Below are positions 42,108 through 61,664 of a stretch of 64,000 bases of DNA, piece by piece. The stretch's first letter is position 1. Each line of letters opens with the position of its first letter. Made by a program: the position numbers and the translations under genes. The notes beneath the pieces are model-generated. The model saw only the letters and a list, made by a program, of their open reading frames with translations. It did no database searches and was not told the DNA's origin. The stretch covers positions 416,001 to 480,000 of the forward strand of contig JAXHMY010000001.1 of NCBI GenBank assembly GCA_034520965.1, given 5' to 3'. Source of the DNA: Spirochaetia bacterium. GTDB taxonomy: Bacteria > Spirochaetota > Spirochaetia > DSM-16054 > Sediminispirochaetaceae.

Positions 42108-42146
42108 ATTTTAAGTATGTCCCAAGCTACTCTTTAAGGAGATTCC

Positions 42147-44732
42147 ATGAGTACTAAAGAACCGACCAACAAGGCTTCAAAATCAAATTCTGATACCGTG
42201 AAAAACACACCGGAGGCAGCCGAAGGACTCTACAACAGCCGTCACGGAAAAGATGGTACGTCGGTAAGCTGGGGCTTTGCAGAACACCTCAAATATACCC
42301 TGGGCGCCGACCGCTTTAATGCCACCTCGCGCGACCAGTTTATGGCACTGGCTTATGCAATTCGCGACCGCATTATGCATCAATGGCTAAAAACAAAACA
42401 AACCCACTACCAACAGGATGTGAAACGGGCTTACTACCTGTCCATGGAGTTTCTGATGGGCCGCGCCATGGGCAACAACATTATCAACATGGAGTTGAAA
42501 GGAGAAGTTCAGCAGGCCCTGGAGGAACTCGGGTACCGCTATGAAGAACTGGCTGAACAGGAGGTTGATGCCGGACTGGGAAACGGTGGCCTCGGGCGAT
42601 TGGCCGCCTGCTTTCTCGATTCAATGGCAACCATGGATCTGCCGGCCTACGGCTATGGTTTGCGCTACGACTACGGGATTTTTCGTCAAAAAATAGACAA
42701 CGGCTACCAGATTGAGCAGCCCGATGACTGGCTGCGATGGGAGAACCCCTGGGAAATCGAGAGGCCCGAGCACGCGGTCGATGTGACTTTGGAGGACGGG
42801 TAGAACCGATGCTGGAGCACGGCACCCGGATATACCGCTGGATCAATGCCCAGTCGGTGAAAGGGATTCCCTACGATATGCCGATTGTCGGTTACGGGGG
42901 AGCCACGGTAAACACCCTTCGTCTTTGGTCTGCCCGGGCGGCGGAGGAGTTCGATTTCGAGGATTTTAACGCCGGCGACTATGTTGAAGCGGTCAGCGCC
43001 AAGGTGATGGCTGAAAACCTGACCAAGGTGCTCTACCCGAACGACAAGCTTTATTTAGGCAAGGAACTCCGGTTGAAGCAGCAGTACTTTTTTGTCTCCT
43101 GTTCACTGCAGGACATTCTGCGCCGATTCAAGCGCGGCTCCCACAACTGGGAGGAGTTTCCCAAATATGCCGCTATACAGCTCAATGATACCCACCCCTC
43201 GCTGGCGGTACCCGAGTTGATGCGACTGTTGATTGACGAGGAGGGATTGCGCTGGAACCGCGCCTGGAATATTACCGTCAAAACCTTAGGCTATACAAAC
43301 CGCACCCTGATGCCGGAGGCACTGGAGAAGTGGCCTGTGCCGATGCTGGACCACCTACTCCCGCGTCATCTGCAGATTATCTACGAAATCAATCATCGTT
43401 TTCTGCAGAAAGCTATAACGGTATTTCCTCAAGATATGAAAAAAATACGCCGGGTAAGTCTGGTTGAAGAGACTACTCCTAAGCAGATCCGTATGGCCCA
43501 CCTGTCAATAGTAGGCTCTCACTCTACTAATGGGGTGGCGGAGCTGCACACTAAACTGCTGAAAAAGCGTCTGGTCCCCGAACTGGCGGCAATTTTTCCT
43601 GAGCGTTTTAACAGCAAAACTAACGGTATCACTCAACGTCGCTTTCTGCTGCATGCAAACCCGCCATTGGCAGAGCTTATCAGCAGCACCATCGGCGATG
43701 AATGGATTACGGATTTATCAAAAATTTCTAAATTGAAGCAGCATATCGACGATCCGGAACTTCAAGAAGCCTACGGCAGGGTAAAACGACAGGCCAAGGC
43801 AAAGCTCTCCGACTATATCCATAAAACCCATGGTTGGGTTATTGACCCGGACAGCTTTTTTGATGTTCAGGTGAAGCGTATGCATGAATACAAGCGACAG
43901 CTGCTCAACGCGCTCCATATTGTCATTTTGTACAACCGGATGCGAAGGGGCAACCCGGATGATTTTGCCCCGCGAACTTACTTGTTCGCCGGCAAGGCTG
44001 CACCCGGGTATGCTATGGCTGAACTGATAATCAAGTTTATCAACAACATTGCTGCGGTCATTAGGCTACGGATGCCGAGCTTAAAGGACGGTTAAAGGTA
44101 CACTTTCTACCTAACTATAGTGTCTCTTTGGCGGGAGGAATCATACCTGCCACCGATCTCTCCGAAAGCAAAATCTCTACCGCGGGAACGGAGGCTTCGG
44201 GAACCGGCAACATGAAGTTTATGTGTAACGGAGCTCTGACTATAGGGACTATGGACGGGGCCAATATAGAAATAGTGGAAGAGGCGGGACGGGAAAATGC
44301 CTTTATCTTTGGTATGTCTGCAGATGAAGTGGCCGAGCTGGCACCCACCTACAATCCCTCACCTTTTACGCGGATAATGAGGAAATAAAAACGGCGGTAG
44401 ACCTGATTTTCTCCGGACATTTTAATTTTTCCGAACCGGGGCTTTTTGAACCCCTGCGGCAGGCACTGTTTGAGCAGGGAGACCAATACATGCACTTGGC
44501 CGACCTGCCGTCCTATTGCCGGGCCCAGGATGCCGCAATTGGTCTGTATAATGATCATCGAAACGAGTGGAACCGCAAGGCCCTCATTAATATAGCATCT
44601 TCAGGGAAGTTCTCTTCCGACAGAACCATAGGCCAGTATGCTCAGGAGATTTGGGATGTAAAAGCCTGTCATGTTGATAAGGATATCGACCCCTGTGACA
44701 CGCTGGAGAATGCAAAGAATGTCAAAGAGTAG
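42147..44732 (+). CDS. glgP: Glycogen/alpha-glucan phosphorylase (frameshifted)
   Basis: [34 protein letters not shown] motif [17 protein letters not shown]. Confidence 0.93.
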
Positions 44733-46273: not shown

Positions 46274-47383
46274 ATGCAATTGGAGCCATTTAAACTCGAA
46301 CGCTTTTTTGCCGAATATGAGTTCAATGTGGAGTATCAGATGAGCGCCTCCGACTGTGAATCGATGAGCGTGGGTGAACTGCTGTCATACGACACAAGCG
46401 CCACTTCCCTCGGCGGGCTGGAACAACTTCAGCTGGGTTATAGCGAATCAAAGGGTGCGCCTCAGCTGCGGGAGGCCGTCAGTCGTTTATATTCACAAAT
46501 TTCCCCGGAGGGGGTGTTAATTGCCGCCCCGGAAGAATTGATTTTTCTGTTTCTCAGCGCACATCTTGCAAAAGACGACCATGTAGTTATTACTACCCCC
46601 GCCTATCAATCCCTCACGGAGATCCCACGTTCCCTCGGCTGCCGAGTGAGCACATGGCCGGTGGAGCTGCGGGAAGGTCGTTGGCAGCTTGATTTTAATT
46701 ATTTAGAGCGGGAATTAAGCGATTCAACTAAAATGGTGATCGTGAATATTCCCCACAATCCGACCGGTATGGCGTTTACTGAAGCAGAGAAAAGACGCTT
46801 AACGGAAATTTTGAGGCGACATGGAACGCTGCTGCTGGCAGACGAGATGTACTGGCAGCTGGAATATGCTGATGAAGTTTCTTCCACCCCCTTCTGCGAC
46901 TTGTACGAGAAGGCAGTCAGCCTTTCCGGTCTTTCTAAGGCCTACGGTCTGCCTGGTCTGCGAATCGGCTGGTTAGCCGGCCAATCGAGTGAGCTGTTAG
47001 AGCCGGCGGCCCAACTAAAGGACTATACCACCATCTGTAATTCCGCCCCCTCGGAGTTTCTCGCTTTGATTGCGGTTCAGAACAGCCCACAATTAGTAGG
47101 GCGGTGCCGAGGAATCATAGCCGAAAACCTAGCCTTGCTCAGCACACTGGCCAAAGACCATCCGCTTCAAATAGAGCTGCTGCCCGGACAGGGCGGGTCA
47201 ATTCTATTTCCTCGCTTTATCGACGGCCGGTCTGCCGAGAAGGCTTCACAGCAACTTATTAAAAAACAGAACCTCCTGATGCTTCACGGACCACTGTTCG
47301 ACATGCCGGACAACTATTTTAGAGTTGGATTAGGACGTACAAGTTTTGCCCAGGCATTAAACAAATTCGAGGATATATTATGA
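46274..47383 (+). CDS. PLP-dependent aminotransferase class I/II
   Basis: NIPHNPTG, DEMY, SKAYGLPGLRIGW. Confidence 0.9.
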   Translation: MQLEPFKLERFFAEYEFNVEYQMSASDCESMSVGELLSYDTSATSLGGLEQLQLGYSESKGAPQLREAVSRLYSQISPEGVLIAAPEELIFLFLSAHLAKDDHVVITTPAYQSLTEIPRSLGCRVSTWPVELREGRWQLDFNYLERELSDSTKMVIVNIPHNPTGMAFTEAEKRRLTEILRRHGTLLLADEMYWQLEYADEVSSTPFCDLYEKAVSLSGLSKAYGLPGLRIGWLAGQSSELLEPAAQLKDYTTICNSAPSEFLALIAVQNSPQLVGRCRGIIAENLALLSTLAKDHPLQIELLPGQGGSILFPRFIDGRSAEKASQQLIKKQNLLMLHGPLFDMPDNYFRVGLGRTSFAQALNKFEDIL

Positions 47384-48056
47384 ATGAAAATATACAACGG
47401 TACTACAAGAAAACTGATCTTCCCCAGGCCCTTCGAGAACTCAAGGGGCGCCCGGTAGTCGTATTCGACCTGGAGACTAACGGTCTTTCTAACCGAAGCA
47501 GCGTTTTATCCTGTAGTGCCTTCAAGTTCAGCATCAAGGGCAGGCAGCAGCTCCGGCGGGAAACTCGACCGCTACTCCCAGCCCCCCTGACAATCCCTTC
47601 GTATTCCCCGAGGCAGGCCCCCTGCAGTTAACCGGAGTTTTCGAGCGCTACTACTTCTCCCGCGAGCCGGAGAATATGGGCGCGATCCGGGTAAATGGAC
47701 TGAGCGAGGAGGTAATCCGCAGCCGTCGCGGGAACGAAGCGTGGCCGGACTACTTTTCCGAGGACCAAGAGTTCCTCGATTTCATAAGAGATGCCGGACT
47801 GTTTGTAGCCCACAATATCGATTTTGACGCCCAGTTTGTCCCGTTTCTGTGTGATAAACCCCTGTTCTGCACGATGAAAAGCAACAGCATCGGCAAATAC
47901 CCAAAATTGGCCGAATTAGCCCGCCGATTTAAGATTAGCACCGATGGAGCTCAGCTTCACGGCAGCAGCTACGATACCTACATCACCGCCCTTGTGTTTA
48001 GTAAAATGGTGGAAGAGGCCCTCCCGGCTTCCAAACAGGGGGAGATGTTTTTTTGA
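47380..48056 (+). CDS. DEDDh 3'-5' exonuclease (frameshifted)
   Basis: VFDLETNG, VAHNIDFD, LHGSSYD motifs across two ORFs. Confidence 0.75.
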
Positions 48057-48070
48057 GCCGGGAGAATACA

Positions 48071-49024
48071 CTAGGAGTAAAACCGAAAATAGTCGGGGCA
48101 CTCACACCTGGCGGTTTCCCAGGCCCCTTGGAAAGCAGCAACTATCGCTTCCGGCAAAGGTCCGGCTTCCGCTCCCTTCATATTATCAGCTAACTGGTCA
48201 ATTGTACTGGCTCCCAGAATCACACCGTCCCCCGCTTCGGCGAACAGCTGCGAATGGTGCAGCATCCACCGCAGGGCTGCATGGGCTATTGATATCTTGT
48301 GTGCAGCGCATTCCTCACCTATCAACTCCAGTGCCTTGAAGGCGCTCTCCTTCCAGAAACGGTCCTGGTAAAAGGGCATCGAAGCAAAGCGGCCGGCTTC
48401 CGGTTTCTTGTTAAAATTGTTGTATTTACCGGTCAATAAACCCCCGGCAAGGGGGTTGTAGGCATAAAACTGCATTCCTAAATCACGGAGTGCGGGAAAC
48501 AGCTCCGGTTCAACCGCTCGAGTAATAGCATTGTACATTCCCTGATAAACCTGCGGCCGGGGCCAGCCGTTCTTTTCGCACAAATAATACACCTTCTCCA
48601 CCAGCCAGGCCGGATAATTACTTAAACCAAGCCGCCGGAACTTTCCTTCCTGATACAATTCCGCACACATACTCAGAGCATCTTCAACCGGGTGGTGCAA
48701 ATCGGGGGCGTGCAGATACAGCAAATCCACGCTTTCTATCTGTAAGCGCTTAAGAGAACTCTCAAAGACCTTACGTACTGAGGGGCCATCCAGCCGGCCG
48801 GTTGTCCGTGGATGAACTTTGGTAGCAATCGATACTCCTGAAACCGTCGACTCTTTCAGCCACTCTCCTATTAATTGCTCAGAGACACCATCGCTATAGA
48901 CAGCTGCGGTGTCCAGACTGGTCCAGCCTGCTGCAGTAAAATGTGTTAGCATTTGGCGGCTTTCCTCCGCATCCGCCCTGGCCCCGAACATCATCGTTCC
49001 GAGAATAAGTTCAACCCTTTCCAT
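48071..49024 (-). CDS. Aldo-keto reductase, AKR7 (aflatoxin aldehyde / succinic semialdehyde reductase)-like
   Basis: LGTMMFG, LDTAAVY, IATK, LYLHAPD, YQGMYNAITRAVEPELFP, YAYNPLAGGLLTGKY. Confidence 0.85.
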   Translation of the reverse strand: MERVELILGTMMFGARADAEESRQMLTHFTAAGWTSLDTAAVYSDGVSEQLIGEWLKESTVSGVSIATKVHPRTTGRLDGPSVRKVFESSLKRLQIESVDLLYLHAPDLHHPVEDALSMCAELYQEGKFRRLGLSNYPAWLVEKVYYLCEKNGWPRPQVYQGMYNAITRAVEPELFPALRDLGMQFYAYNPLAGGLLTGKYNNFNKKPEAGRFASMPFYQDRFWKESAFKALELIGEECAAHKISIAHAALRWMLHHSQLFAEAGDGVILGASTIDQLADNMKGAEAGPLPEAIVAAFQGAWETARCECPDYFRFYS

Positions 49025-49048
49025 ACACTATCCCTCTATATCAATTTA

Positions 49049-49072
49049 TTGTATTCAATATTTTGTATTTAT
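49049..49072. promoter_or_regulatory. Putative GntR operator pair between divergent AKR and epimerase genes
   Basis: TTGTATTCAA and TTGTATTTAT, variants of TTGTATACAA. Confidence 0.5.
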
Positions 49073-49111
49073 GTTATACTTAAACTCATATTATAATTGA
49101 TGGGAGCGAAT

Positions 49112-50041
49112 ATGTACACAGTAATTACCGGTGGATTCGGACATATCGGTTCATGGACAGCGCGTAATATTATCGAGCAGGGTGGGAAGGTGCTGATTTT
49201 AGATACCCGTACTACAGTACCCGATTGTTTGGTTGATTCCCAAGAAAATTTTATTCACCTTGCCTGTGATGTAACCCGATTTGCCGAACTCACAGCTGCA
49301 TTTCAACAGTACCGGGACTCTATTAATGGAATTATTCATACCGTGGGTATCATGGGCGAATTCGTACAGGCGAATCCCCATAGAAACACTGAAATTAATG
49401 TGAACGGATTTCTCAATGTCCTTGAAGCTGCCCGCATTTTCGATATAAAAAAAGTTGCCTATACAAGCACCGGAGCGGTATACGGCGCCATCAAAGGCAT
49501 TGCCTCCGAAACCCAACATATACCCCAACCCGCCGATTTATACAGTGCAACCAAAACCTCGGCGGAGATGATTAGCCTTCAGTACGGAAATACTTTTGAT
49601 ATGGATATAAGAATCGCCCGGGTTTACTTCATCTACGGCCCGGGAAAACTCCCCTCTACCTTCATTAAACTCTATCGTAACACCTTTGGGGTGTTAGAAG
49701 GGCTTGAGGGTTTACAAATGGAGCGAGGATTTGATCAGAAACTCGATTTCACCAATGTACAGGATGCAGCCCGGGGTATTTATCTATTGTACTCCGCGGA
49801 AGAGCTCCAATACCGTGTGTATAATATCGCAACCGGGACGGCATCTTCCGTAGGTGAAGTGGCCGCTCTGGCAGCCGAAATTGCCTCCGGTAATAAGCCG
49901 GCTGAAATAGGCCCTGGAACCCTTATGCCGCGATGTGAAGCACTCTCAATCGACCTTGCCCGTGCGGAGCTGGGATACGAACCGCAGATTTCCCTGGAGG
50001 AGGGGCTGCGAGAATACTATGGATGGATTCAATCTCGTTAG
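49112..50041 (+). CDS. NAD-dependent epimerase/dehydratase (extended SDR)
   Basis: ITGGFGHIG, YTSTGAVYG, YSATK. Confidence 0.88.
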   Translation: MYTVITGGFGHIGSWTARNIIEQGGKVLILDTRTTVPDCLVDSQENFIHLACDVTRFAELTAAFQQYRDSINGIIHTVGIMGEFVQANPHRNTEINVNGFLNVLEAARIFDIKKVAYTSTGAVYGAIKGIASETQHIPQPADLYSATKTSAEMISLQYGNTFDMDIRIARVYFIYGPGKLPSTFIKLYRNTFGVLEGLEGLQMERGFDQKLDFTNVQDAARGIYLLYSAEELQYRVYNIATGTASSVGEVAALAAEIASGNKPAEIGPGTLMPRCEALSIDLARAELGYEPQISLEEGLREYYGWIQSR

Positions 50042-50048
50042 TCTGTGC

Positions 50049-50696
50049 TTAGTCCTCTGAGGTACACTGCTGTTTGAGAACTTCCTTCGATTTCAGGTGG
50101 TGTTGGATAATCATTTCCTGTGCAAGAAAACCGTCGCGGTCCTTGATTGCATTTACAATGGAGTGATGCTCTTCAAGGGTCTCCTCAGGAGCCCGGATTA
50201 AGCCTTTCTGATAGCTGCGGATAATATAGGCATAACTCATGTTCATATCCTGCATAATCCGGTTGGCGGAATATTTGACAATTGTGGAATGGAAGTGCTT
50301 GTCCTCTTGGGCATATCGCTTTTTATCATCTTCAGAAAAAGGAAGCCGGAAGCCCTCAAAAAAACCGGCTAAATGCTGCAGCTCTTCTTCGCACCCGTTT
50401 TCAATGCACAAGCGAATAGCAATCCCTTCCAATCCGGCACGCACTGCATATAGATCCTGCATCTCTTTGCAATCGAAAACTTTTACAAAAAAACCGTAGC
50501 GACTCTGCTGTTCAATAAATTTTTCTCCCACTAAGCGGGATATTGCAGCATTTATGGGTGTTAGGCTTACTCCCAAACGTTCAACTAATTCATTCTTATT
50601 AATTTTTTGCCCTGGCGGTAGATCTCCACCAAGAATCATATCCCGAATTCCTTCGTACACATGATCACTCAGAATAGTATTTTCGATTTTCGGCAT
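50049..50696 (-). CDS. GntR-family regulator (FCD domain)
   Basis: wHTH LGVSLTPI, EEHHSIVNAI. Confidence 0.9.
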   Translation of the reverse strand: MPKIENTILSDHVYEGIRDMILGGDLPPGQKINKNELVERLGVSLTPINAAISRLVGEKFIEQQSRYGFFVKVFDCKEMQDLYAVRAGLEGIAIRLCIENGCEEELQHLAGFFEGFRLPFSEDDKKRYAQEDKHFHSTIVKYSANRIMQDMNMSYAYIIRSYQKGLIRAPEETLEEHHSIVNAIKDRDGFLAQEMIIQHHLKSKEVLKQQCTSED

Positions 50697-50721
50697 TTTA
50701 CTTATTCCCCTTACTCTCTAC

Positions 50722-51360
50722 TTATGCAAATGAATTGGCTATTATTTCCCGTGAGCTGCTAAGGTGACTGTGCATAGCTTTTTCAGCTGTATCACCGTCG
50801 CCGGATTTGATTGCATCAAATAAATGTTCATGCTCATCAATACTCACATGATAATCCTTAGGAAACCCTTCCAGGTTGGCAATAACAATAATATTAAATG
50901 AAGATGCCATCTGGTACAAAAAATGGTTTCCGCTCGTTTTCATTATCTCCATGTGGATTTTATAATCTGCTTCAGTTATATGGCCGATATCGTCCTTTTC
51001 TGAGGCTGCTCGAAACTCCTCAAGGCGACTGCGCAGCTCTTCAATATGTTCTTTTGTGGCATTCTCAGCTGCTTTTCTGGCCCCTAACGGCTCCATGCGG
51101 ACCCGTATATCGTAGATATCCAGCAGTTCTTTCTTCGAAAAATGCCGCACATAGGCCCCTTTACGGGGTAGGATTTCAATCAGCATCTCACGCTCAAGCT
51201 TAGAAAACGCTGTTAATAAGGGCGTTCTTGAAACTCCAAGTTGTTCAGCAAGTTTTTCCTGTTGGAGTTTCTGTCCGCTTTTCAGTTCTCCCCGTAAGAT
51301 CATATCCTTCAGAGCTTTGTACACTTTCAGCGGTAAATCTTCATACTGGAGTTTTTCCAT
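50722..51360 (-). CDS. GntR-family regulator (FCD domain)
   Basis: LAEQLGVSRTPL, DEHEHLFDAI, MHSHL. Confidence 0.9.
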   Translation of the reverse strand: MEKLQYEDLPLKVYKALKDMILRGELKSGQKLQQEKLAEQLGVSRTPLLTAFSKLEREMLIEILPRKGAYVRHFSKKELLDIYDIRVRMEPLGARKAAENATKEHIEELRSRLEEFRAASEKDDIGHITEADYKIHMEIMKTSGNHFLYQMASSFNIIVIANLEGFPKDYHVSIDEHEHLFDAIKSGDGDTAEKAMHSHLSSSREIIANSFA

Positions 51361-51390
51361 GGAACCTACCTGTGGATTAATATTTTGATA

Positions 51391-51400
51391 TTGTATGCAA
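51391..51400. promoter_or_regulatory. Putative GntR operator (autoregulation)
   Basis: TTGTATGCAA 30 nt upstream of the GntR start. Confidence 0.5.
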
Positions 51401-51468
51401 AAATAAGCTGAATGTAAAGGAAAGCGGACCTTTTAAGGGCCTTACATTTCTCTCCGCGTGTCTTTGCT

Positions 51469-52293
51469 TTATTCTTCTATTCTTAGTATTCGCCGGGCAG
51501 TTCTTGTATCTGCGATGGTATAACCCAGCAACTCAATATATTTCCGTACCGGCTTCACCAACTCAGCATTATAGGCGGCCTTCCTTCCGTAAACATCCAC
51601 CGGACTGTCTTCAAATCCTACCCGTATCCAGGCCGCACCTAGCGACAGAGCAGTAGCAATCAGTTTGGGGTTGGTTTTTCCATGCAGCATCAACCCCCAT
51701 ACAGCGTCCTCCGGCATAAGTTGTGTCGCCATAAAGATAAAGCGCGGGTCTAGTGGTATTGCACCGGGAATACCCATACACAAGCCAAAGCGTGGCGGCG
51801 GGGCAAGCAGCCCCTCATCAATGAGCTGTATGGTATTTGTTACCATAGTCAGCGAAAACAGCTCAAGTTCTGGTACAACACTTCTGTTCTTCATTTCACT
51901 GGCCCAATACCGGATATCGCTTGGAGAGTTTATATACACCCCGTCGAAGAAATTAGTGGAACCCATATTCAGTGAGGCCATTTCGATCAGATCGCTTTGC
52001 AGTACTACACAGCGTTCCTTTGCTGTTAACCCCTTCACCCCGCCGGTGGACCCTTGTACCACAACATCACAATTTTTTTGAATTGCTTCGACAGTGGCGT
52101 TGAACACCTCCATATCAGTGGAGGCTTCACCGCGCTCATTCCGCACATGCAGGTGAACCATCGCGGCCCCTTCATTTACACATTGTTCTACCTCATTAGC
52201 TATTTTAGAAGGGGTAAGCAGGGGGACATTCTCCGAGTTTTCCCAGAACCCGACCGGCGCTAATGATATTATTATTGGCCGTTTTACATGCAT
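51469..52293 (-). CDS. BKACE (DUF849, Kce-like) beta-keto acid cleavage enzyme
   Basis: GAAMVHLHVR, GSTGG, ASLNMGSTNF, RVGFED. Confidence 0.85.
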   Translation of the reverse strand: MHVKRPIIISLAPVGFWENSENVPLLTPSKIANEVEQCVNEGAAMVHLHVRNERGEASTDMEVFNATVEAIQKNCDVVVQGSTGGVKGLTAKERCVVLQSDLIEMASLNMGSTNFFDGVYINSPSDIRYWASEMKNRSVVPELELFSLTMVTNTIQLIDEGLLAPPPRFGLCMGIPGAIPLDPRFIFMATQLMPEDAVWGLMLHGKTNPKLIATALSLGAAWIRVGFEDSPVDVYGRKAAYNAELVKPVRKYIELLGYTIADTRTARRILRIEE

Positions 52294-52426
52294 ATGCGCT
52301 CCTCTTACTGGCGGGTTATGTGTTTCTATATGAGCATTAACCTTAAAACCGAAACATAGGGAGCCGGGCTTCTCTCTTCTCACCCAGCTCCTTGTTCAAA
52401 TATTGATTTAATTGTTCATTCAACTT

Positions 52427-52975
52427 TCAGTCGGCAGTGTTATTTTGCTGCTGACTATTACTTATTAGTTGAATTAACTCTCTAAAAATAACTCCCACCG
52501 CCTGTAGTAGCATCAAAACGCCACCGCTAATCAATGACAATCTGGGCCAAAAATTATCGAATGTACCACTCGGACTGATCATACCTTTACCGAAAGCCGC
52601 AAACTGATAACCATACACAATGAGGTAATAAAGAAAGAAAATGATTAAAAGATGAACAACAATAGAAAGTGTATGGCGCGCAGCGGGAAGTTTTAATATA
52701 TCCAGAAGATATGAAACCCGAATATGGCGGTCCGTACGAATACATACACTACTACCCCATAATGTCAGATATGCAAGCAAGAATCCGGCAAACTCCTCTA
52801 TCCAGATTATCGGAAGCTGTACAACGTATCTCATTACCACTTGAACATTAAGCAATACAAACAGTCCTCCAAAAATAATAACTATGGCTATCTGTACCAT
52901 TTTGTCCACTATATCGATTACCTTATCAACAGAGTAAAATGATTTTTTTAGTGCTTCAATATTTTGATTTTTCAT
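52427..52975 (-). CDS. dctQ: TRAP transporter small permease
   Basis: QVVMRYV..WIEE..HIRV; four TMs; ATGA overlap with dctM. Confidence 0.85.
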   Translation of the reverse strand: MKNQNIEALKKSFYSVDKVIDIVDKMVQIAIVIIFGGLFVLLNVQVVMRYVVQLPIIWIEEFAGFLLAYLTLWGSSVCIRTDRHIRVSYLLDILKLPAARHTLSIVVHLLIIFFLYYLIVYGYQFAAFGKGMISPSGTFDNFWPRLSLISGGVLMLLQAVGVIFRELIQLISNSQQQNNTAD

Positions 52976-54268
52976 AATCGCATTCCTAATGTTCTGGGAA
53001 GAAATTCTGATAACTGCGGAACAGCCAGTACGAGTATTGCAATAACTATAAGCCCAAGAATATAAGGCCAACCTCGTTTAGTTATACCTTCTACTTTCAG
53101 ATTACCAATTAGCGCTGTAGTCAAAAGCGTGCCTCCTACAGGAGGGGTTAAATGCCCAATTCCAAGAGCCATAATAATACTCATTCCGGTGTGCACCGAA
53201 CTAAAACCGAAGTGTGTCATAAGGATCGGAGCAATGATGGGAGTAAATAAGAGTACATTCGTTGTTCGGTCCACAAACATCCCTGCGACAATTAGCGTTA
53301 TGAGTATCAATGCCAATAGGACAATCGGATTATCGGAAAATCCTAGAATCTCCGACATTAAACGGGCAGGAATATTTCGGCGCGCTACAATATATGAGAA
53401 AGCCCTGGCTAATCCAGTCAGTATCACAATTGCCGCCGTAGTACGAGCACTCGATAAGAAAACTTCGTAAAGTTCTTTCCATCGCACTGTCTTATAGACA
53501 AAAACAGATATTATCAGAGCATACAACGCTGCTACCGCCGAAGCCTCAGTGGCAGTAAAAAAACCGCCAAGAATACCACCAATGATAATTGCCGGCATTG
53601 CCAGGGGAATTATTGCCTTCTTTAGAGCTGATAACACCGTCTTAAGGCTATCCCGTTTGCGTGATGTATAGCTATACACTTTTTTACAAATTAAGTAGGT
53701 AGTTATCATCTGAGTTATAGCCAACAGCAGACCAATAGTGAGCCCCGCCGCAAACAAACTTCCAATCGAAACCCCAAAGGTAGCTCCGTATACGACCAAC
53801 ACTATACTAGGCGGCAACAGCGGCGAGAGAACTGCAGAGGCAGCCGTAAGCGCTCCTGCAAAATCTTCATCGTATCCCTCTTTTTTCATTGCCGGTATCA
53901 GCACAGAGCCGATTGCAGCAACATCCGCGTGGGCTGAGCCCGATATTCCTGCAAAAAAAAGACTCACAAGCACATTGACCTGAGCAAGACCACCTACAAA
54001 ATGTCCTACTAGGGTTTTAGCTAAATTGATAAGTCTTTCAGTAATCCCTCCTCGAGTCATTAAATTACCGGCCAGCATAAACATAGGCACCGCCAAAAAT
54101 GAAAAACTAGTTAAGCCCCGAAATGTCTGCTGAAACAGTACTATAAGAGCGGTATCTCTTCCTGCCTCAAAGAGAGTGCAGTAACATGGAAACACCAAGC
54201 GCTCCAAAAACAGGAACACTTAGAATAATAAGTAGAACAAGGCCGATCAACATCCATAAAACAACCAC
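52972..54268 (-). CDS. dctM: TRAP transporter large permease (frameshift near 54170)
   Basis: FLAVPMFMLAGNLM, GISGSAHAD, PPSI, TATEAS, TPPVG. Confidence 0.92.
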
Positions 54269-54314
54269 AACAGCTACCTACCCCTTCTTCATATAACTAA
54301 AGTATCTATTATCA

Positions 54315-54343
54315 ATACGGAGGTTGCCCGGCAACCTCCGTAT
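54315..54343. terminator. Perfect hairpin between dctP and dctM (attenuator or mRNA stabiliser)
   Basis: atacggaggttgcc-c-ggcaacctccgtat. Confidence 0.6.
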
Positions 54344-54374
54344 ATTCAAGTCCAAATTGTATAAGCCAGCTCAG

Positions 54375-55475
54375 CTAATCGATATACTTTGATAGTTGGT
54401 CTTTTTCAGACTCAATCTCTGCCATATCAAGATTATCTTTTACCCGATCAACCGCTTCAAAGGTTTTGTCCATATACTCCTGAGGTACGATATCTGAAAG
54501 CAGCTCCGTTCCTACGCGCACGCCAACTTCTCGCCATTCGCCTTTTTCCTGGGAAGTCGGTTCATAGATAACCTTATCAGCATCTTTCATAAGCTGCAGA
54601 GATTCGCCCTCGGAAATCTGAACACCTACACTCTGCACCTTAGCTGCAAGAGCCCCGGCCTCATCGATAACTTCCTGGAATTCAGGTGATAATGATTCAT
54701 AGAAATCATTGTTGATAACATAATAGTGGTGGTCAAACATGTGACCAGTTAAAGTAACATAATCACATATCTCAAGCAATCCAGCTGGCCATGCCGAGGC
54801 CAATCCACCTTCGGTGCCGTCCATCAATCCCGATTGTAATGCAGAATAGCGTTCCGACGCTGAAATAGAGACAATCGCTGGTGCGCCAAGTGCATCCCAC
54901 AAATTTACATACATTGGAATTTGAGGAACCCGCATTTTTATGTTGTACTTCTCAAGATCAGCAGGTACCTTAACGGGACCGCGTACTGTGTACAGATTAC
55001 GAATAGAATTTTCTGCACCTCCTAAAAGGCGGATTTTATTGTTTGAATTTTCTAACCAGTAATTCTGGACATATTTCAAGTATTCAGGATCCTCGAAAAG
55101 CTCCCACCCAATATATCGATTCTCAAAAAGAAACGGCATATTAGTCATTTGAACTTCCGGAACCTCTCCAGAAAGAGAACCAGTAGTAGCATTAAACACC
55201 TCAACTTCTCCAAGTACCAGCTGTTCAATTACATCCCGGTCACCTCCAAGGGCATCCCATGGCAAAACTGTTACTGTAATAACACCATCTGTTTCTCGCT
55301 CAACATGTTCCTTAAATGCCGCAGCAGCAGCTTTGGTATAAGAAAAGTTTTGGTCTACGTACGTAATCTCACGCTTTTCCACTACCTCTTCGGCTGACTC
55401 CTCAGCCGAACCGCCTGCCATTACTAAGCTCGCCGCAATCACCATAAACACCACTAAAAATAAAAAACGTTTCAT
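54375..55475 (-). CDS. dctP: TRAP substrate-binding protein
   Basis: Spirochaete-type signal (MAGGSAE), LGGDRD, KMRVP carboxylate-binding Arg, YSALQSGLMDG. Confidence 0.9.
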   Translation of the reverse strand: MKRFLFLVVFMVIAASLVMAGGSAEESAEEVVEKREITYVDQNFSYTKAAAAAFKEHVERETDGVITVTVLPWDALGGDRDVIEQLVLGEVEVFNATTGSLSGEVPEVQMTNMPFLFENRYIGWELFEDPEYLKYVQNYWLENSNNKIRLLGGAENSIRNLYTVRGPVKVPADLEKYNIKMRVPQIPMYVNLWDALGAPAIVSISASERYSALQSGLMDGTEGGLASAWPAGLLEICDYVTLTGHMFDHHYYVINNDFYESLSPEFQEVIDEAGALAAKVQSVGVQISEGESLQLMKDADKVIYEPTSQEKGEWREVGVRVGTELLSDIVPQEYMDKTFEAVDRVKDNLDMAEIESEKDQLSKYID

Positions 55476-55524
55476 AAACGCCTCCTTTTAATTTCCTTTT
55501 GCATTGAATTTTACATATAATATA

Positions 55525-55534
55525 TTGTATACAA
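55525..55534. promoter_or_regulatory. Putative GntR operator
   Basis: Perfect TTGTATACAA downstream of the dctP promoter (TTGACA 55580-55575, TAAAAT 55558-55553). Confidence 0.6.
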
Positions 55535-55667
55535 AAAGAATTGATAAAATCAATTTTACCACAGAAAACTGGATTGTCAATGCTTGTTAAACAATTATTA
55601 AACAATTTGTCATAACCTTTTTTATGCAACCTTACTTTATTGACAGTTGCTGTATATTGTGTTATAT

Positions 55668-55683
55668 ATTTTGTATACAAAAT
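55668..55683. promoter_or_regulatory. Putative GntR operator
   Basis: 16-bp palindrome ATTTTGTATACAAAAT over the start region of a TTGACA (55640) promoter. Confidence 0.65.
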
Positions 55684-55697
55684 CGAAAGGAAGTCAA

Positions 55698-56550
55698 ATG
55701 ATTGGTGTATCACCGGCATACTTTTTATCCCGCTTTTCGCCGAATTTTACTCCCGCTGAGGTAGAACAGTCATTGGAGGGAATTCGCAAGACCGGCTTCC
55801 TTACCCTCCAGTTGGAGACGTTTCTCTCGGAACAGGTTGAAATATGGGATAAAGCCGCGTGTTCGCGAATCAAGACTGCAGTTCAGAGGGCCAATTTAGA
55901 AATCTCGCAGTTCGTAGCCCATCATTTAATGCACTATTTTAGTTCTATCAGAGACCCTTCGTTCCGATGAGCTTACTTCGGAGTTTAGAAGAGCCCTACA
56001 CATTGCCGAGCAGGTCCACCCCGCCGGTATCATCACGATTCCGCAGCCGCCCTTCGAGCTGCCGCAGAATAAAAAATGGCCGGTGTACTCCGCTCTGTGG
56101 TCAGTTTATCTTAATTCTCTGGACAAACTGCGGAACCTGGCCGCGGAAGTCGGTTTCACCCTTGCCCTTGAGGTTCTCCCGGGCTCCTTGCTCGGCACTA
56201 TCGATGGGTTTCTGCGGATGACCGAGACTCTCGGAGCGCCCTATATCGGACTCAATCTCGATACCGGTCACGCCTGGGCCTGTAAGGAAAAAGTCGAGCT
56301 CATACCGCTCAAGGCTGCCAGATATTTATGCGGAACCCATCTATCCGACAACAGTGGCAATGAAAATCTTTCCCTGCCGCCGGGAGAGGGAACGATTTCC
56401 TGGGACGCTTTTTTTCATGCATGTCGTATGGCCGGTTACCACGGGCCATTTGATGTAGAGATACGTTGTACGCCGGAGGAGGTCGATGAACAGTACTCGG
56501 CGGCGTACCGCTTCCTCAGTCAATATACATTACAGCAACTGGAGGTTTGA
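55698..56550 (+). CDS. Sugar-phosphate isomerase/epimerase (xylose-isomerase-like TIM barrel), frameshifted
   Basis: LALE, LNLDTGH, THLSDN, LPPGEGTISW, DVE metal motifs. Confidence 0.75.
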
Positions 56551-56551
56551 A

Positions 56552-57400
56552 ATGCAACCACACAAGGACACGCAGAAATTCAACGAACGGGTTGAACTTC
56601 TAAAGTCGAAGGCCAAGGAGGTGCGGCACCACATCGTAGATATGGTGTACACCGCTAAATCCGGCCACATTGGCGGTTCAATGTCAGCGGCCGACATAAT
56701 GACGGCGCTTTATTTTGATATACTCAATATCGATCCGAATAAGCCGCGCTGGGCCGATCGTGATCGGATGATACTTTCAAAGGGACATGTATGCCCGGTT
56801 CTCTACACCTGCCTGGCTTTGCGGGGTTATTTTCCGGTGGAAACCCTGAAAACCCTGCGGCAGTTCGGCAGCATCCTGCAGGGCCATCCCATCAGCAAGA
56901 CCCCCGGAGTGGATGTGAGCTCCGGTTCCCTGGGACACGGCTTCGGACAGAGCATCGGCATCGCCCTTGAGGGAAAGTACATGAAGAAAGACTACTCGGT
57001 GTATGTGGTGCTCGGCAACGGGGAAATTCAGGAGGGCCTGATCTGGGAAGCCGCCTCAGCGGCGGACAAATACAAACTGGATAATTTAGTAGCCATAGTT
57101 GATGACAACCGCATGCAGAATGACGGTTTTACCGACGGCATTATGCCCATGGACCCGATCGACAAAAAATTCGAAGCTTTCAACTGGGAAGTTATGAAGA
57201 TTGACGGCCATAATATGGCAGAGGTACTCGCAACCATCGAAAAAGCGAAAGCCTTCAAGGGAAAACCGGTCTGTATCGTCGCCAATACTATTAAGGGCAA
57301 AGGCGTCGGATTGATGGAGAACGAACAGCGCTTTCACGGGAAACCGCCGACGGACGAAGAGTTCCAAATTGCATTGAAAGAGATACGAGGGGAGGTATAA
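56552..57400 (+). CDS. Split transketolase, N-terminal (ThDP-binding) subunit
   Basis: SGHIGGS, DRMILSKGH, LQGHP, GSLGHG, GNGEIQEG..WEA, TIKGKG. Confidence 0.92.
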   Translation: MQPHKDTQKFNERVELLKSKAKEVRHHIVDMVYTAKSGHIGGSMSAADIMTALYFDILNIDPNKPRWADRDRMILSKGHVCPVLYTCLALRGYFPVETLKTLRQFGSILQGHPISKTPGVDVSSGSLGHGFGQSIGIALEGKYMKKDYSVYVVLGNGEIQEGLIWEAASAADKYKLDNLVAIVDDNRMQNDGFTDGIMPMDPIDKKFEAFNWEVMKIDGHNMAEVLATIEKAKAFKGKPVCIVANTIKGKGVGLMENEQRFHGKPPTDEEFQIALKEIRGEV

Positions 57401-57402
57401 TC

Positions 57403-58344
57403 ATGAAATTGAAAGCAGCAAAAGTACCAACACGACGGGCATTCGCAGATAGATTGGTAGAGTACGGCGAAATCGATCCCGAACTGATCGTCTTTGATGC
57501 CGATATCGGTTACTCCACATATACACACCTATTCGGTGACAAGTATCCGGAGCGATACTTTAACATGGGAATCCAGGAATTGAATGCGGTAGATACCGCC
57601 GCCGGCATGGCCGCTGAAGGCCGTACCGTCCTGATGGCCAGTTACGGGGTGTTCCTGACAATGCGGGCGGTTGAAGCAATTCGCTCGTTTGTCTGTTATC
57701 AAAACCTGAATGTGAAGTTCCTCTCCTCCCACGGCGGCCTCACGCCGGGTATTGATGGAGTAACCCACCAGGCAACCGAGGATATGGCAGCCATGACCAC
57801 CATCCCCAACATGAAAGTACTGGCCCCGGCAGACACTGAGTCGGCCCGCAGGAGTGTCGACGTATCCATGCAGACCCCGGGCCCCTGCTTCGTACGCCTG
57901 ATGCGGGACCCGCTGTTCGACATCTACGGCCCGGATGAACAGTTTCAAATGGGCGGCAGTAAAGTGGTACGGGAAGGCCAAGATATTACCATCGCCACCT
58001 ACGGAGATATGCTCTTTCAGGCCTTAGAGGCCGCTGAAACCCTGGCTGCCACCGGAATAGAGGCAGAAGTGCTGGATTTGTACTCAATGAAGCCGGTAGA
58101 CTACGCTGCAGTAAGAAAATCCGTTAAAAAGACCGGCCGGCTGCTGGTGCCGGAGGACCATCAGAAACGCAACGGCCTCGGCTACGAGCTGGCGGCCTAC
58201 TGCCTGCGCGAATATCCAGTTCCCTTCGACCATATGGGCTTGGAAGACACCTTTGCCGAGAGCGGAGACTACTATAAAATTTTGGACAAATACGGACTTT
58301 CAGCTGCCCACATAGTTGAGCGGGCACAAAATTTAATTAAATAA
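57403..58344 (+). CDS. Split transketolase, C-terminal subunit
   Basis: YPERYFNMGI, DGVTHQATED, EDH..GLG. Confidence 0.92.
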   Translation: MKLKAAKVPTRRAFADRLVEYGEIDPELIVFDADIGYSTYTHLFGDKYPERYFNMGIQELNAVDTAAGMAAEGRTVLMASYGVFLTMRAVEAIRSFVCYQNLNVKFLSSHGGLTPGIDGVTHQATEDMAAMTTIPNMKVLAPADTESARRSVDVSMQTPGPCFVRLMRDPLFDIYGPDEQFQMGGSKVVREGQDITIATYGDMLFQALEAAETLAATGIEAEVLDLYSMKPVDYAAVRKSVKKTGRLLVPEDHQKRNGLGYELAAYCLREYPVPFDHMGLEDTFAESGDYYKILDKYGLSAAHIVERAQNLIK

Positions 58345-58354
58345 GGAGAAGATT

Positions 58355-59340
58355 ATGCTGAAAATGGCAATTATTGCAGGTTTCCTCGGAAAAACGAAAG
58401 ACCGCTTTCACGGATAGAGCCAGGCCATCGACCTGGAGGGTAAGTTCCAGAGCTTAAGCGAAATGGGCAGGCTATTGACGGTTTCGAAATTGTATATCCC
58501 GATCTGAAGCCAGGCGATGCCGATACAAGCTCGAAAAACTGAATGAAAAAGTACCGGAATATCCATCGCTGCAATCAACGTAAATGTAGAAGGGGAGCCG
58601 GAGTTCCGCAACGGCGGTGTAAGCTCACCGGACCCTGAGGTCAGGACCAAAGCGGTGCGCTTTATAAAAGAGGCCAAGGATTTTGCTACCGAAGTAGGGG
58701 CCGACAAGGTCACCTGCTGTCCATTGGGCGACGGGTACGAATTCAGTTTCCAGCTCGACTATCAGGAGTACTTGGAACAACATGGTTGCAATTCGTTCCG
58801 GCGAGAGCCGGCCGCCATAACCCGGACATGCCCTTATACATCGAAGTACAAGCCGAGCGAAACTCGGGGCCGCTGCTTTGTGAACGATACCGCCGAAGAC
58901 CATCCTGCTGCTGAACCAGGTTGATGTACCAAACATGGGCATAACCCTGGATTTCGGCCACTCGATCTACGGGAACGAAAACCCCTCCGAGGCTGCGCTG
59001 TTAGTGCACAACAGTCCCTATAATTTATATGTACATATTAACGACAACAACGCCCTGTGGGACTGGGACTTCTCCGCCCCGGTTCGAAAGCAGCATTCTC
59101 GAATACATTGAGTTCATCTATTACCTGCGGAAAATTGGCTACAGCGACTACCTGACCTCCGATACCTCCCCTACCCGATGGCCGATCCGCGACACCTTCG
59201 AGATCAACAGCCGCCTGACCAACAAGATCTGGAAATTGCTCGACTCGATCGATGAAAAGCAGCTGGATAAGCTGATCCACGGCGATGATTACATGCAGAC
59301 CTGGCGCTTTATCGAAGAGAATCTATTGGGACTGAAATAG
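58355..59340 (+). CDS. Xylose-isomerase-like TIM-barrel protein, several frameshifts
   Basis: MLKMAIIAGFLGKTKDRFH start; DGYEFSFQ, YKPSETR, TLDFGHS, HINDN..DWD fragments in shifting frames. Confidence 0.7.
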
Positions 59341-59380
59341 AAAGGCTTGATATAGGCCTAAGATAACTCAGGAGAATTTT

Positions 59381-60368
59381 ATGGCGACAAAACCTAAAGT
59401 ATACATAACCCGCAGAATACCGCAGGCCGGAATAGACCTGCTCAAGCAGAAATATGAAGTCGAAGTGAACCCGCACGACCGGGTGCTCAGCCGGGAAGAA
59501 TTGCTGACAGCAGTGCTAGTTGCCGCCGACGGTGTGCTCTGTCTGCTGACCGACAAAATCGACGGCGATTTTTTCGATTCGGCGCCGAAGCTGCGCGGCG
59601 TGGCCAACTATGCCGTCGGCTACGACAACATCGACGTACCGGAGGCTACCAGCCGTAAAATCCCGGTCTCCAACACACCAGGGGTCCTGACCGACGCCAC
59701 CGCCGAGATGGCCTGGGCGCTGCTGTTTGCAGTTGCCCGGCGAGTGGTGGAATCGGACGGGCGTCCTGCGCCGCAGGAAAATGGGGCGGATGGGGGCCGC
59801 TGCAGTTGATCGGCGGTGACATAAGTGGCAAAACCCTCGGAGTGGTCGGTACCGGCCGCATCGGCACCGCCATGGCCCTGAAATCGACCGGTTTCAACAT
59901 GCAGGTACTCTACACCGATGTGGTGGAAAACGAAGTACTGAACGAGAAGTGCAAGGCCCGCCGGGTAGATTTAGATACATTGCTGACTGAATCCGATTTC
60001 ATCAGCATCCATGTGCCGTTGATGGGCTCCACCAGGCACCTGTTCAATACAGAGAGCCTTCAAAAAGATGAAATCCACCGCCTACCTGATCAATACCTCC
60101 CGCGGACCGGTTATCGACGAGGCCGATCTGATGCAGGCGCTTGGGACCGCAGGGGAGATCGCCGGGGCCGGTCTGGATGTGTATGAGACCGAACCCGATA
60201 TGGCCGCCGGTCTGGCCGAACAGAAAAACGCGGTGCTTACCCCGCACACCGCCTCCGCAACCGAAGAGGCCCGCACCAATATGGCCCTCAAAGCGGCCCG
60301 CAACCTGATGTGCCATGCCTAAGAAGGAAATACACCCCCGGATTGGCGTAAATCCGGAAATTTTGTAA
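59381..60368 (+). CDS. D-2-hydroxyacid dehydrogenase (glycerate/glyoxylate reductase type), frameshifted
   Basis: AVGYDNID, NTPGVLTDATAE, GTGRIG, INTSRGPV, GLDVYE.EP, LTPH. Confidence 0.88.
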
Positions 60369-60426
60369 CCTTCTACAATTTCCGGTTGTTAGGTTATAAA
60401 ACGATAAATAAATGGTTATCAAAATA

Positions 60427-60472
60427 AAACCGGACCGGGTTTCTCCTCCTTTTCCCGGTTCGGTTTTTTTTC
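60427..60472 (+). terminator. Intrinsic terminator ending the catabolic operon
   Basis: accggaccggg/cccggttcggt stem with T7 tract. Confidence 0.6.
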
Positions 60473-60540
60473 ATAACCGGTTGCCAGACCGACTGAGCCG
60501 GGACTTCCGCATTTCTCCACTCTCTCTCTATACTTACCGC

Positions 60541-61664
60541 ATGCAGACACTCAATATTCTCTTTATCGAACCCTTTTACGGAGGCTCGCACAAGGCCTTT
60601 GCCGACGAACTTGCCCGGTACTCGCGCCACAATGTTACCCTGTTCACCCTGCCGGCCCGCTTCTGGAAGTGGCGGATGCGGGGTGCAGCTCTGGAGGTGG
60701 TCCGCTGGATCCCCCGTCCCGACAGCTTCGATCTGGTAATTGCCGCCAGCATGCTCTCGTTGGCCGACCTGAAGGCCCTGTGGGGAGCCGCCGCCCCGCC
60801 GATGATCAGCTACTTTCATGAAAACCAGCTCAACTACCCCCTCAGCCCCGGCGAAACCCGCGATTTCCACTACGGTTTTACCGATATTACCACCGGCCTG
60901 GCGGCCGACCGCATCATTTTTAACTCGCATTTCCATAAATCCGCTTTTTTTGAGGAGTTGCCGCGCTTCATCGCCCACATGCCGGACACTAAACCCACCT
61001 GGGTGGTGGAAGCACCATTTAAAGAAAGCGTTGTTTTCTATCCGGGTATTGCGCCAGGCTATAGAAGCAAGTGGGCTGCCGGATGGCCCTGCGGAAAGCG
61101 CGCAGGCGGCCGGTACTCCGGCCGCCCCTCCCATGGTCCTCTGGAACCACCGCTGGGAGCACGACAAGAATCCGGAAGAGTTCTTCCGGGTGCTGTTTTC
61201 GCTGCAGGAGGGCGGGCTGGCCTTCAGACTGGCGGTAGTTGGAGAGCAGTTCAGCCGTTACCCGCGGATATTCGACGAGGCCCGCGATAAACTTGCCGAG
61301 GAAATTGTGCAGTTCGGCTATGTAGAGGACCGCGCGGCCTACTACCGCTGGCTGCGGCAGGCGGACATCGTGGTCAGCACCGCCAATCAGGAGAACTTCG
61401 GCCTCTCGATCGCCGAAGCCGCGGCCGCCGGTGCGTATCCTCTGCTGCCGCAGCGGCTCTCCTACCCCGAGCTGATTCCGCCGGAGTACCACGGGGCCTG
61501 CCTGTATGATGATAATAATGAGCTGGAAAATAGATTGGCTGAATTGATCAGCCGCAGTTTCACTGCCCCCCAAGGGCCTTTCCGAGGCTATGCACATCTA
61601 CAGCTGGCCGTCTCTGATAGAAAAATACGATACTCTGTTTTCTGAAACAGCCGCAGGCAGGTAA
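60541..61664 (+). CDS. DUF3524 + GT-B glycosyltransferase (GTDC1/QTMAN-like), frameshifted
   Basis: EPFYGGSH, LPARFWKWRMR, YFHENQL.YP, FNSHFH, WNHRWEHDKNP, ENFGLS. Confidence 0.85.

Follow-up and report, generated by a model that had tools for sequence, protein, structure and literature searches.

A conserved, uncharacterised gene island with a split transketolase and a xylose-isomerase-fold enzyme in spirochaetes and bacteria of a second phylum

Described pathways and the island

The described systems closest to the gene island reported here are the routes for D-apiose, D-apionate, sulfoquinovose, deoxyribonate, and the tetronates. The island lies at positions 48071–60368 of a 64,000-nucleotide stretch (the window), which corresponds to contig C1:416001–480000 of a Spirochaetia genome (G000; 3.35 Mb, 86% complete). 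The island is conserved across two phyla and is uncharacterised, and we consider it probable that, in outline, it takes an anionic five-carbon (C5) compound through a TIM-barrel isomerase (TIM2) and a transketolase (TK) to glycerate. No description of the gene set was found in the literature searched, which covered few subscription papers; gene-cluster figures that might affect its novelty accompany PMC13753588 and PMC12994016 as supplements. The features of the island are as follows.

48071–49024, minus strand: AKR7-like aldo-keto reductase (AKR; Pfam), accessory, seen only in the host genus (3/63 TIM2 loci)
49046–49061, no strand: GntR-type operator palindrome between the divergent AKR and SDR genes, 22.9 bits, kept in congeners
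49112–50041, plus strand: extended short-chain dehydrogenase/reductase (SDR; Pfam), accessory, orthologs of 51–53% in other TIM2 loci
50049–50696, minus strand: GntR/FCD regulator 1 (Pfam)
50722–51360, minus strand: GntR/FCD regulator 2 (Pfam)
51388–51403, no strand: operator upstream of the gntR pair, overlapping a −10-like hexamer
51469–52293, minus strand: β-keto acid cleavage enzyme (BKACE; DUF849), Zn and catalytic residues kept, likely a parallel side branch
52427–52975, minus strand: small subunit DctQ of a tripartite ATP-independent periplasmic (TRAP) transporter (Pfam)
52972–54275, minus strand: TRAP large subunit DctM, start approximate, frameshift near 54170, intact 80% ortholog in G034
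54315–54343, no strand: perfect 14-bp hairpin between dctP and dctM
54375–55475, minus strand: TRAP binding protein DctP, 65% ortholog within the TK–TIM2 operon of G034
55522–55537, no strand: operator upstream of dctP, 24.6 bits
55668–55683, no strand: operator upstream of the TIM1–TK–TIM2–HPR operon, 26.6 bits, the best in the genome
55698–56550, plus strand: TIM1, an accessory AP_endonuc_2 barrel whose metal residues are of epimerase type, frameshifted once by the assembly near 55949
56552–57400, plus strand: TK N subunit (TK-N), GNGE replacing GDGE
57403–58344, plus strand: TK C subunit (TK-C; Pfam and motifs)
58355–59340, plus strand: TIM2, the core gene, for an enzyme of the xylose/rhamnose-isomerase fold, frameshifted by the assembly at several places
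59381–about 60368, plus strand: 2-hydroxyacid dehydrogenase resembling glyoxylate/hydroxypyruvate reductases (HPR), assembly frameshifts

Gene families were assigned with Pfam (TIM2 through an intact congener copy), and every family named in the original prediction was confirmed in this way. The genes fall into four strand blocks, and no kinase or aldolase was found among them with Pfam. The AKR7-like label was borne out by the best PDB match, an aflatoxin aldehyde reductase (E = 1e-90). For TIM1, a PDB search gave no match and an Atlas search gave AP_endonuc_2 clusters only; its metal residues are of the 3-epimerase type. TK-C keeps the TRR, HGG, DGVTHQ, and MRD motifs.

The D-apiose route (ApsI, AplK, and AptAB) resembles the island in its split TK and possibly in its isomerase, which we take to belong to the clan of PDB entry 3ktc (TIM2 has the 3ktc fold, TM-score 0.88, 25% identity). 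In contrast, the island has a TRAP transporter, and its sister loci (other loci carrying TIM2) a tripartite tricarboxylate transporter (TTT), instead of an ATP-binding cassette (ABC) transporter, and in the TIM2 pocket Tyr is replaced by Lys and Trp by Cys. No AplK (FGGY apulose kinase) was found in the island; the best match in the genome, which is 86% complete, was GlpK (761 bits, above the cut-off). The island TK is 41% and 30% identical to AptA and AptB of E. coli SE15 (sequences located through the accessible part of PMC13001218) and forms a separate clade in a FastTree phylogeny, with AptB on a long branch. Because AplK was not found and the TK is not orthologous to AptAB, assignment to the D-apiose route was rejected.

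The sulfo-TK pathway (SqvD, SqwGH, SqwI, and SqwF or SqwD/KL) would share with the island a kinase-free transfer of a two-carbon unit from an anionic ketose by a split TK, whereas the island has no linked SqvD, SqwI, sulfoacetaldehyde enzyme, exporter, or GH31. The gene kinds described for this pathway in the available part of PMC11659671 sit together with another TK (33% identical) at C3:569169–584602 of the same genome, and the island was therefore rejected as a sulfo-TK pathway. A sulfoquinovose-type substrate, one of the options in the original prediction, would agree with the split TK, the anion transporters, and the presence in sulfate reducers. However, GH31, DUF362, RpiB, the sulfoacetaldehyde enzyme, and the exporter are absent from the island and occur together on C3, and the glycerate kinase and RuBisCO-like protein (RLP) modules described below imply a carboxylate, making a sulfosugar extremely improbable. 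Membership in a characterised pathway, which had been raised as a check, thus failed for both AptAB and sulfo-TK. The C3 locus (L146) is itself a candidate oxidative sulfo-TK locus, with genes for a GH31-like glycosidase, an ABC transporter, a DUF362 protein, a ROK regulator, a split TK, RpiB, an acylating sulfoacetaldehyde-dehydrogenase-like protein (545/600 bits), a CoA ligase pair, and a DASS transporter.

Published D-apionate routes run through ApnO–OiaC–LerK–EryH–EryI and ApnO–OiaK–OiaX/OiaT (available parts of PMC13753588 and PMC12994016). Sister loci with a TIM barrel, a DAK kinase, and RpiB (module B below), or with an OiaK-like kinase and RLP (module D), are similar to these, whereas entry here is by an isomerase and the island uses TK and a 2-hydroxyacid reductase. 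ApnO was seen neither among the island genes nor among the recurring neighbour families, although no search aimed at ApnO was made. OiaC, or OiaK with RLP, is absent from the island and the genome, and look-alikes in the sister loci scored below the cut-off. By analogy, the island may work as an apionate route does, with an isomerase taking the place of ApnO at the entry, yet it would not be a member of one. In Blautia, a TK and hydroxypyruvate reductase route reportedly acts on 3-oxo-isoapionate. This route is not among the four listed in the available part of PMC13753588.

The oxidative deoxyribonate pathway (SDR, BKACE, and glycerate kinase; available part of PMC6365646) is alike at the level of gene family, with SDR and BKACE in a sugar-acid cluster and glycerate as a meeting point, but has no TK or isomerase as described there. 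The tetronate routes (DenD/LtnD, OtnI, OtnK, and OtnC) share an extended SDR and an AP_endonuc_2 barrel with the island and DUF1537 kinases with sister loci. However, the SDR reached 33 of 325 bits on DenD, TIM1 had no OtnI match, and the island has no kinase or decarboxylase.

Conservation and the shared operator

Close relatives of the host carry the titles Sediminispirochaeta or Spirochaetaceae. TK-C orthologs were found in five of nine congeners (77–93%) and in 4 of 24 genomes of other families (62–67%). The BKACE–TIM1–TK arrangement is kept in five loci (G003, G007, G009, G001, and L028), as are, where the contigs extend, the GntRs, SDR, AKR, TIM2, and HPR. The gene set, whose joint conservation the original prediction had left to be checked, thus recurs in congeners and also in other spirochaete families and in metagenome loci with TIM2 90–100% identical to proteins named Desulfobacterales or Olavius Delta1. 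The L028 contig is titled Halalkalibaculum; its copy of the island is spirochaete-like (87–96% on TK, GntR, SDR, and AKR), and the contig is possibly mis-binned.

Between the genes of homologous loci, palindromes of the type TTGTATACAA recurred. Homologous loci outside G000, some of them in congeners, supplied 20 distinct 16-mers for a weight matrix (consensus ATATTGTATACAAAAT), which ranked the island sites at 55668, 55522, 49046, and 51388 first to fourth in the 3.35-Mb genome (26.6–22.1 bits; next, 18.1), which upholds the proposed sharing of one operator motif. Three of the four operators overlap −10-like hexamers, which fits repression. A co-regulated kinase elsewhere had also been considered, and no sugar kinase was found among the open reading frames (ORFs) near the next 10 operator-like matches in the genome. 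Conservation and the shared operator support the proposal of an uncharacterised, co-regulated catabolic set for an anionic sugar derivative; the transfer of a two-carbon unit by TK from a non-phosphorylated donor may likewise stand, and no co-regulated kinase was found. The description of the system as kinase-less holds for the island but not beyond it, because four sister loci carry glycerate kinase and G000 has an unlinked GarK-type glycerate kinase (C8:58390–59529), adjoined by a β-hydroxyacid dehydrogenase-like ORF (C8:58390–60454). DUF1537, DAK, RLP, and MOFRL kinases were not found in the G000 genome. At C2:15583–17608 (L147), an AEC-like transporter is accompanied by another HPR paralog, the second in the genome, with 67% identity to HPR of the congener.

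TIM2 defines an isomerase subfamily

TIM2 had 1914 homologs at E ≤ 1e-40, of which the best 120 are 64–98% identical; the organism-named sequences among these 120 are from Desulfobacterales or other Deltaproteobacteria. TIM2 is also present in a cultured bacterium, Desulfamplus magnetovallimortis. Its predicted model (predicted local distance difference test score 84) matched 3ktc, which we take to be the Pectobacterium apiose isomerase ApsI, followed by L-rhamnose and xylose isomerases. In the two-metal site (EYKPxE, D-x-x-H, H, D, D), residues E159, K161, D194, H197, H222, D231, and D263 were invariant in 31 of 31 TIM2 sequences. Lys76 aligns with the Phe of the xylose isomerase NLFSDP motif, which presumably lines the far end of the substrate. 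All 91 motif-bearing TIM2 ORFs carry this Lys, as do two alphaproteobacterial homologs linked to TRAP; at this position, Tyr was found in four homologs that are ABC-linked or orphans, and one paralog has a different basic stretch. Judged from these alignments, Lys76 would suit an anionic substrate. TIM2 stands for a widespread isomerase subfamily that lacks an annotation of its own and often goes under the label 'xylose isomerase'.

Homologs of the 3ktc clan were also seen on plasmids of Pantoea, Allorhizobium, and Limimaricola, where they lie outside recognisable apiose clusters. A sister subfamily (30–36% to TIM2; L125, L126, L123, and L076:1975–3549) was found in Paracoccus, Roseibium, and a spirochaete, together with GntR, another TIM barrel, and a transporter of the TRAP or ABC type; at the end of L123 there is also a BKACE-like ORF.

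Interchangeable modules downstream of TIM2

Loci were drawn from genomes and from the best 80 of 474 metagenome matches (40 of 64 parts scanned). The 92 loci with TIM2 were reduced to 63 by clustering at 95%, with gene sets pooled per cluster; 53 had a visible module and 10 had none. Module A, the split TK, was present in 27 of the 63 loci; module B (TIM3, RpiB, and DhaKL) in 15, with RpiB in 12 of them; module C (a DUF1537 kinase with the class II aldolase FBA-II and/or PanB) in 16, five of which also had A; and module D (an OiaK-like kinase) in three, all also with B and two with RLP. A and B never occurred in one locus. The modules were intermixed over a quick TIM2 tree, the only tree used for this comparison, and two separate TK clades pair with TIM2. 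The TIM2 of one module B locus (L076) was 100% identical to an Olavius Delta1 protein.

HPR was found in 15 of 27 A loci versus 0 of 36 others, and glycerate kinase in 4 of 27 versus 0 of 36, directly after HPR in G268, whereas PanB (9/63) and FBA-II (5/63) were found only in module C. The module D kinase was closest to OiaK (398 bits, versus 177 for OtnK), and the module B RpiB was 54% identical to the RpiB of a DAK/TPI/tal/tkt cluster versus 37% to the SqwI-like RpiB on C3. Minimal loci such as L102 and L106 contain a transporter, TIM2, and a module only, which makes it probable that the compound taken up is isomeric with the intermediate on which the modules converge (the hub). Taken together, the modules would call for a hub that can be decarboxylated to a four-carbon ketose (DAK and RpiB), suits an OiaK-like kinase and RLP, donates a two-carbon unit to TK to leave a 2-oxo acid that goes to glycerate, and carries a hydroxymethyl group for the PanB paralog. 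Linear 3-oxo-pentonate fails because it is no TK donor, and linear 4-oxo-pentonate because it is no β-keto acid; 3-oxo-isoapionate would be the one C5 acid we found that meets all four modules directly. That it is the exact hub is plausible, although short of probable.

The same loci can be read as a carboxylate copy of the sulfo-TK pathway, in which isomerisation of a uronate (C6 or C4) is followed by one or two rounds of shortening by TK down to glyoxylate, which becomes exported glycolate, with 3-oxo-tetronate as the hub. Two isomerases, TK, and a reductase parallel sulfo-TK (available part of PMC11659671), glyoxylate reductase is the best model of the dehydrogenase (369/455 bits), AEC exporter genes occur in 8 of 63 TIM2 loci, the G003 island has a malate synthase G gene in its vicinity, and dihydroxyacetone would go to DhaKL. 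However, this reading is improbable, because it leaves glycerate kinase, PanB, the higher OiaK than OtnK score, and the RpiB of 12 of 15 B loci unexplained and because many TK loci lack TIM1. Neutral apiose or its borate complex was rejected as the substrate because TK loci carry a 2-oxo-acid reductase, not DhaKL, and aceric acid because it fits FBA-II but not glycerate kinase or PanB.

A PanB paralog scoring above the NCBIfam cut-off accompanies TIM2 and the DUF1537 kinase, often with FBA-II, in L070, L072, L074, L075, L080, L087, L088, L093, L106, and L111, and is possibly a catabolic hydroxymethyltransferase or aldolase. Clusters of TIM3, DhaKL, and TRAP also occur on plasmids of Rhizobium tropici, Sphaerotilus, and Shinella (L128, L129, and L132), the latter two with SDR and a split TK and the Shinella cluster also with BKACE.

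Transporter and BKACE

The TRAP transporter, taken as a fixed member in the original prediction, is not one. In the five congener-type loci, BKACE and TIM1 stand back to back across one operator without TRAP, and DctP was found in none of the nine congener genomes. Across the 63 TIM2 loci, the TTT gene TctA (42) predominated over DctM (11), and the GC content of the island TRAP cassette was 0.42, versus 0.49–0.52 on its flanks. A TRAP ortholog (DctP 65%, DctM 80%) lies downstream of TK–TK–TIM2 in G034, indicating that TRAP is part of the pathway, yet interchangeable with the TTT transporter, which it appears to replace in the island. DctP keeps the KMR arginine; similarity to PDB entries was uninformative about its ligand (85 distant matches with mixed ligands). 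DctP homologs in L141 (G647) and L142 (G703) occur with 3-dehydro-L-gulonate 2-dehydrogenase, a YhcH-family gene, and Gfo/Idh/MocA, likely a diketogulonate cluster in spirochaetes.

BKACE had been placed after TK, cleaving with acetyl-CoA a 3-oxo acid left by the transketolase. It is present in every congener locus that extends to its position, shares the operator, and keeps the HxH and E Zn ligands, STGG, N, E, and R-x-G-x-ED (aligned to Kce, 2y7d; conserved over 27 homologs). However, it occurred in 10 of 27 TK loci versus 8 of 15 TK-free module B loci, well-flanked TK loci without it include L102, G268, and L084, and the gene tied to TK is a 2-oxo-acid reductase. This sequential route is therefore very improbable; gene content suggests that BKACE is independent of TK and likely a parallel side branch.

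Frameshifts in the assembly

TIM1, TIM2, HPR, and DctM are frameshifted in the present assembly; intact copies exist in G034 for DctM and in congeners for the other three. Extra bases at eight coding positions (55949, 58895, 59079, 59089, 59093, and 59517–59522) were missing from short-read contigs of run X1, possibly the source sample, and other runs concurred at several of them. The short-read contigs did not bridge the breaks at 58420–58600, at about 58780, and in DctM. A pseudogene reading was ruled out for the breaks spanned by these contigs, and we read the frameshifts of the island as probable assembly errors. Neighbouring genes for glycogen phosphorylase, an exonuclease-domain protein, and a glycosyltransferase (window 41538–44700, 47380–48056, and 60412–61645) likewise seem to be broken up into several ORFs each, as would be expected if the assembly is prone to indels.

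Proposed pathway and alternatives

In the proposed route, TRAP would import an anionic C5 oxo-sugar acid, and TIM2 would catalyse a two-metal aldose–ketose shift on OHC-CHOH-C(OH)(CH2OH)-COO−, the carboxylate analogue of apiose, to give 3-oxo-isoapionate; in a sub-variant, TIM2 would migrate the hydroxymethyl group of 2-oxo-apionate made by SDR. TK would then shift the HOCH2-CO- unit, without prior phosphorylation, to glyceraldehyde 3-phosphate, yielding xylulose 5-phosphate and hydroxypyruvate, which HPR would reduce to glycerate for phosphorylation by the unlinked GarK-type kinase. SDR, AKR, TIM1, and BKACE would broaden the input, and a 2-deoxy-3-oxo acid may be cleaved by SDR with BKACE, in the manner known from the deoxyribonate pathway. 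The full route through 3-oxo-isoapionate is put forward tentatively.

Several points weigh against it. The substrate and the activities are predictions. The TIM1 residues would be better suited to a linear ketose than to a tertiary carbon, 3-dehydro-L-gulonate 2-dehydrogenase is flanked by the DctP homologs (36–41%) that are nearest among those with context, and the motif for thiamine diphosphate and Mg in TK-N (window 57016–57024) is GNGE instead of GDGE in G000 and congeners (13/36 TK-N). The glycerate kinase linkage reflects only about two lineages, and no dehydrogenase was seen at the TK loci of G034 and G033. The OiaK and OiaX scores are under the cut-off (398 and 185 of 700), RLP reaches a higher score with the DK-MTP enolase model (346), and the OiaC model gave no match to TIM3; in Rhizobium tropici, TIM3 homologs adjoin a threonate-dehydrogenase-like gene without RpiB, suggesting that the TIM3 family also serves other acids. 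The module counts are weakened by partial loci, best-80-of-474 sampling, and pooling within 95% clusters. The aldose acid proposed here has no natural source that we know of, and a literature search that included apiuronic and penturonate terms turned up nothing on it.

Some of these points favour a linear C5 acid. The substrate of TIM2 would be a penturonate or, if TIM1/SDR take part, a 2-oxo-pentonate (2-keto-L-xylonate, for example), and the product a 4-oxo-pentonate, from which TK would free tartronate semialdehyde; TIM1/TIM2 would tautomerise this to hydroxypyruvate, or AKR7 would reduce it to glycerate. This would account for TK with glycerate kinase, for a kinase with FBA-II (dihydroxyacetone phosphate and glyoxylate), for the 3-epimerase-type residues of TIM1, and for the location of DctP relatives in diketogulonate clusters. 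In the available parts of the sources, 2-oxo-L-threo-pentonate is a natural ascorbate product (PMC11066805), and SDR and BKACE work on a linear 2-deoxy-pentonate (PMC6365646). However, an extra tautomerisation is required in modules A, B, and D, TIM1 and AKR are absent from the minimal TK loci L059, L098, and L102, and a hydroxymethyl branch is the more direct fit for PanB (9/63, all module C) and for the OiaK-like kinase. We regard the linear acid as an unlikely alternative that still deserves attention, and see a small chance that none of the readings considered here applies.

Taken at its widest, the route through 3-oxo-isoapionate would mean that sediment sulfate reducers, the Olavius Delta1 symbiont, and spirochaetes eat an unrecognised branched C5 sugar acid by means of a new xylose-isomerase-fold uronate isomerase replacing ApnO. 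It would have four interchangeable modules, one of them new, in which a DUF1537 kinase, a PanB paralog, and a class II aldolase move the hydroxymethyl branch onto tetrahydrofolate. As a whole this is a speculative picture that we consider unlikely to hold in every part. Sulfate reducers are not usually regarded as users of sugar derivatives, and the island offers a testable route in mostly uncultured sediment bacteria. It would yield a transketolase whose donor is a branched keto acid, and possibly also a case of direct removal of a sugar branch, which is not the main way in which apiose is handled according to the available part of PMC13753588. Once identified, the ligand would put a name to a carbon compound exchanged in anoxic sediments.

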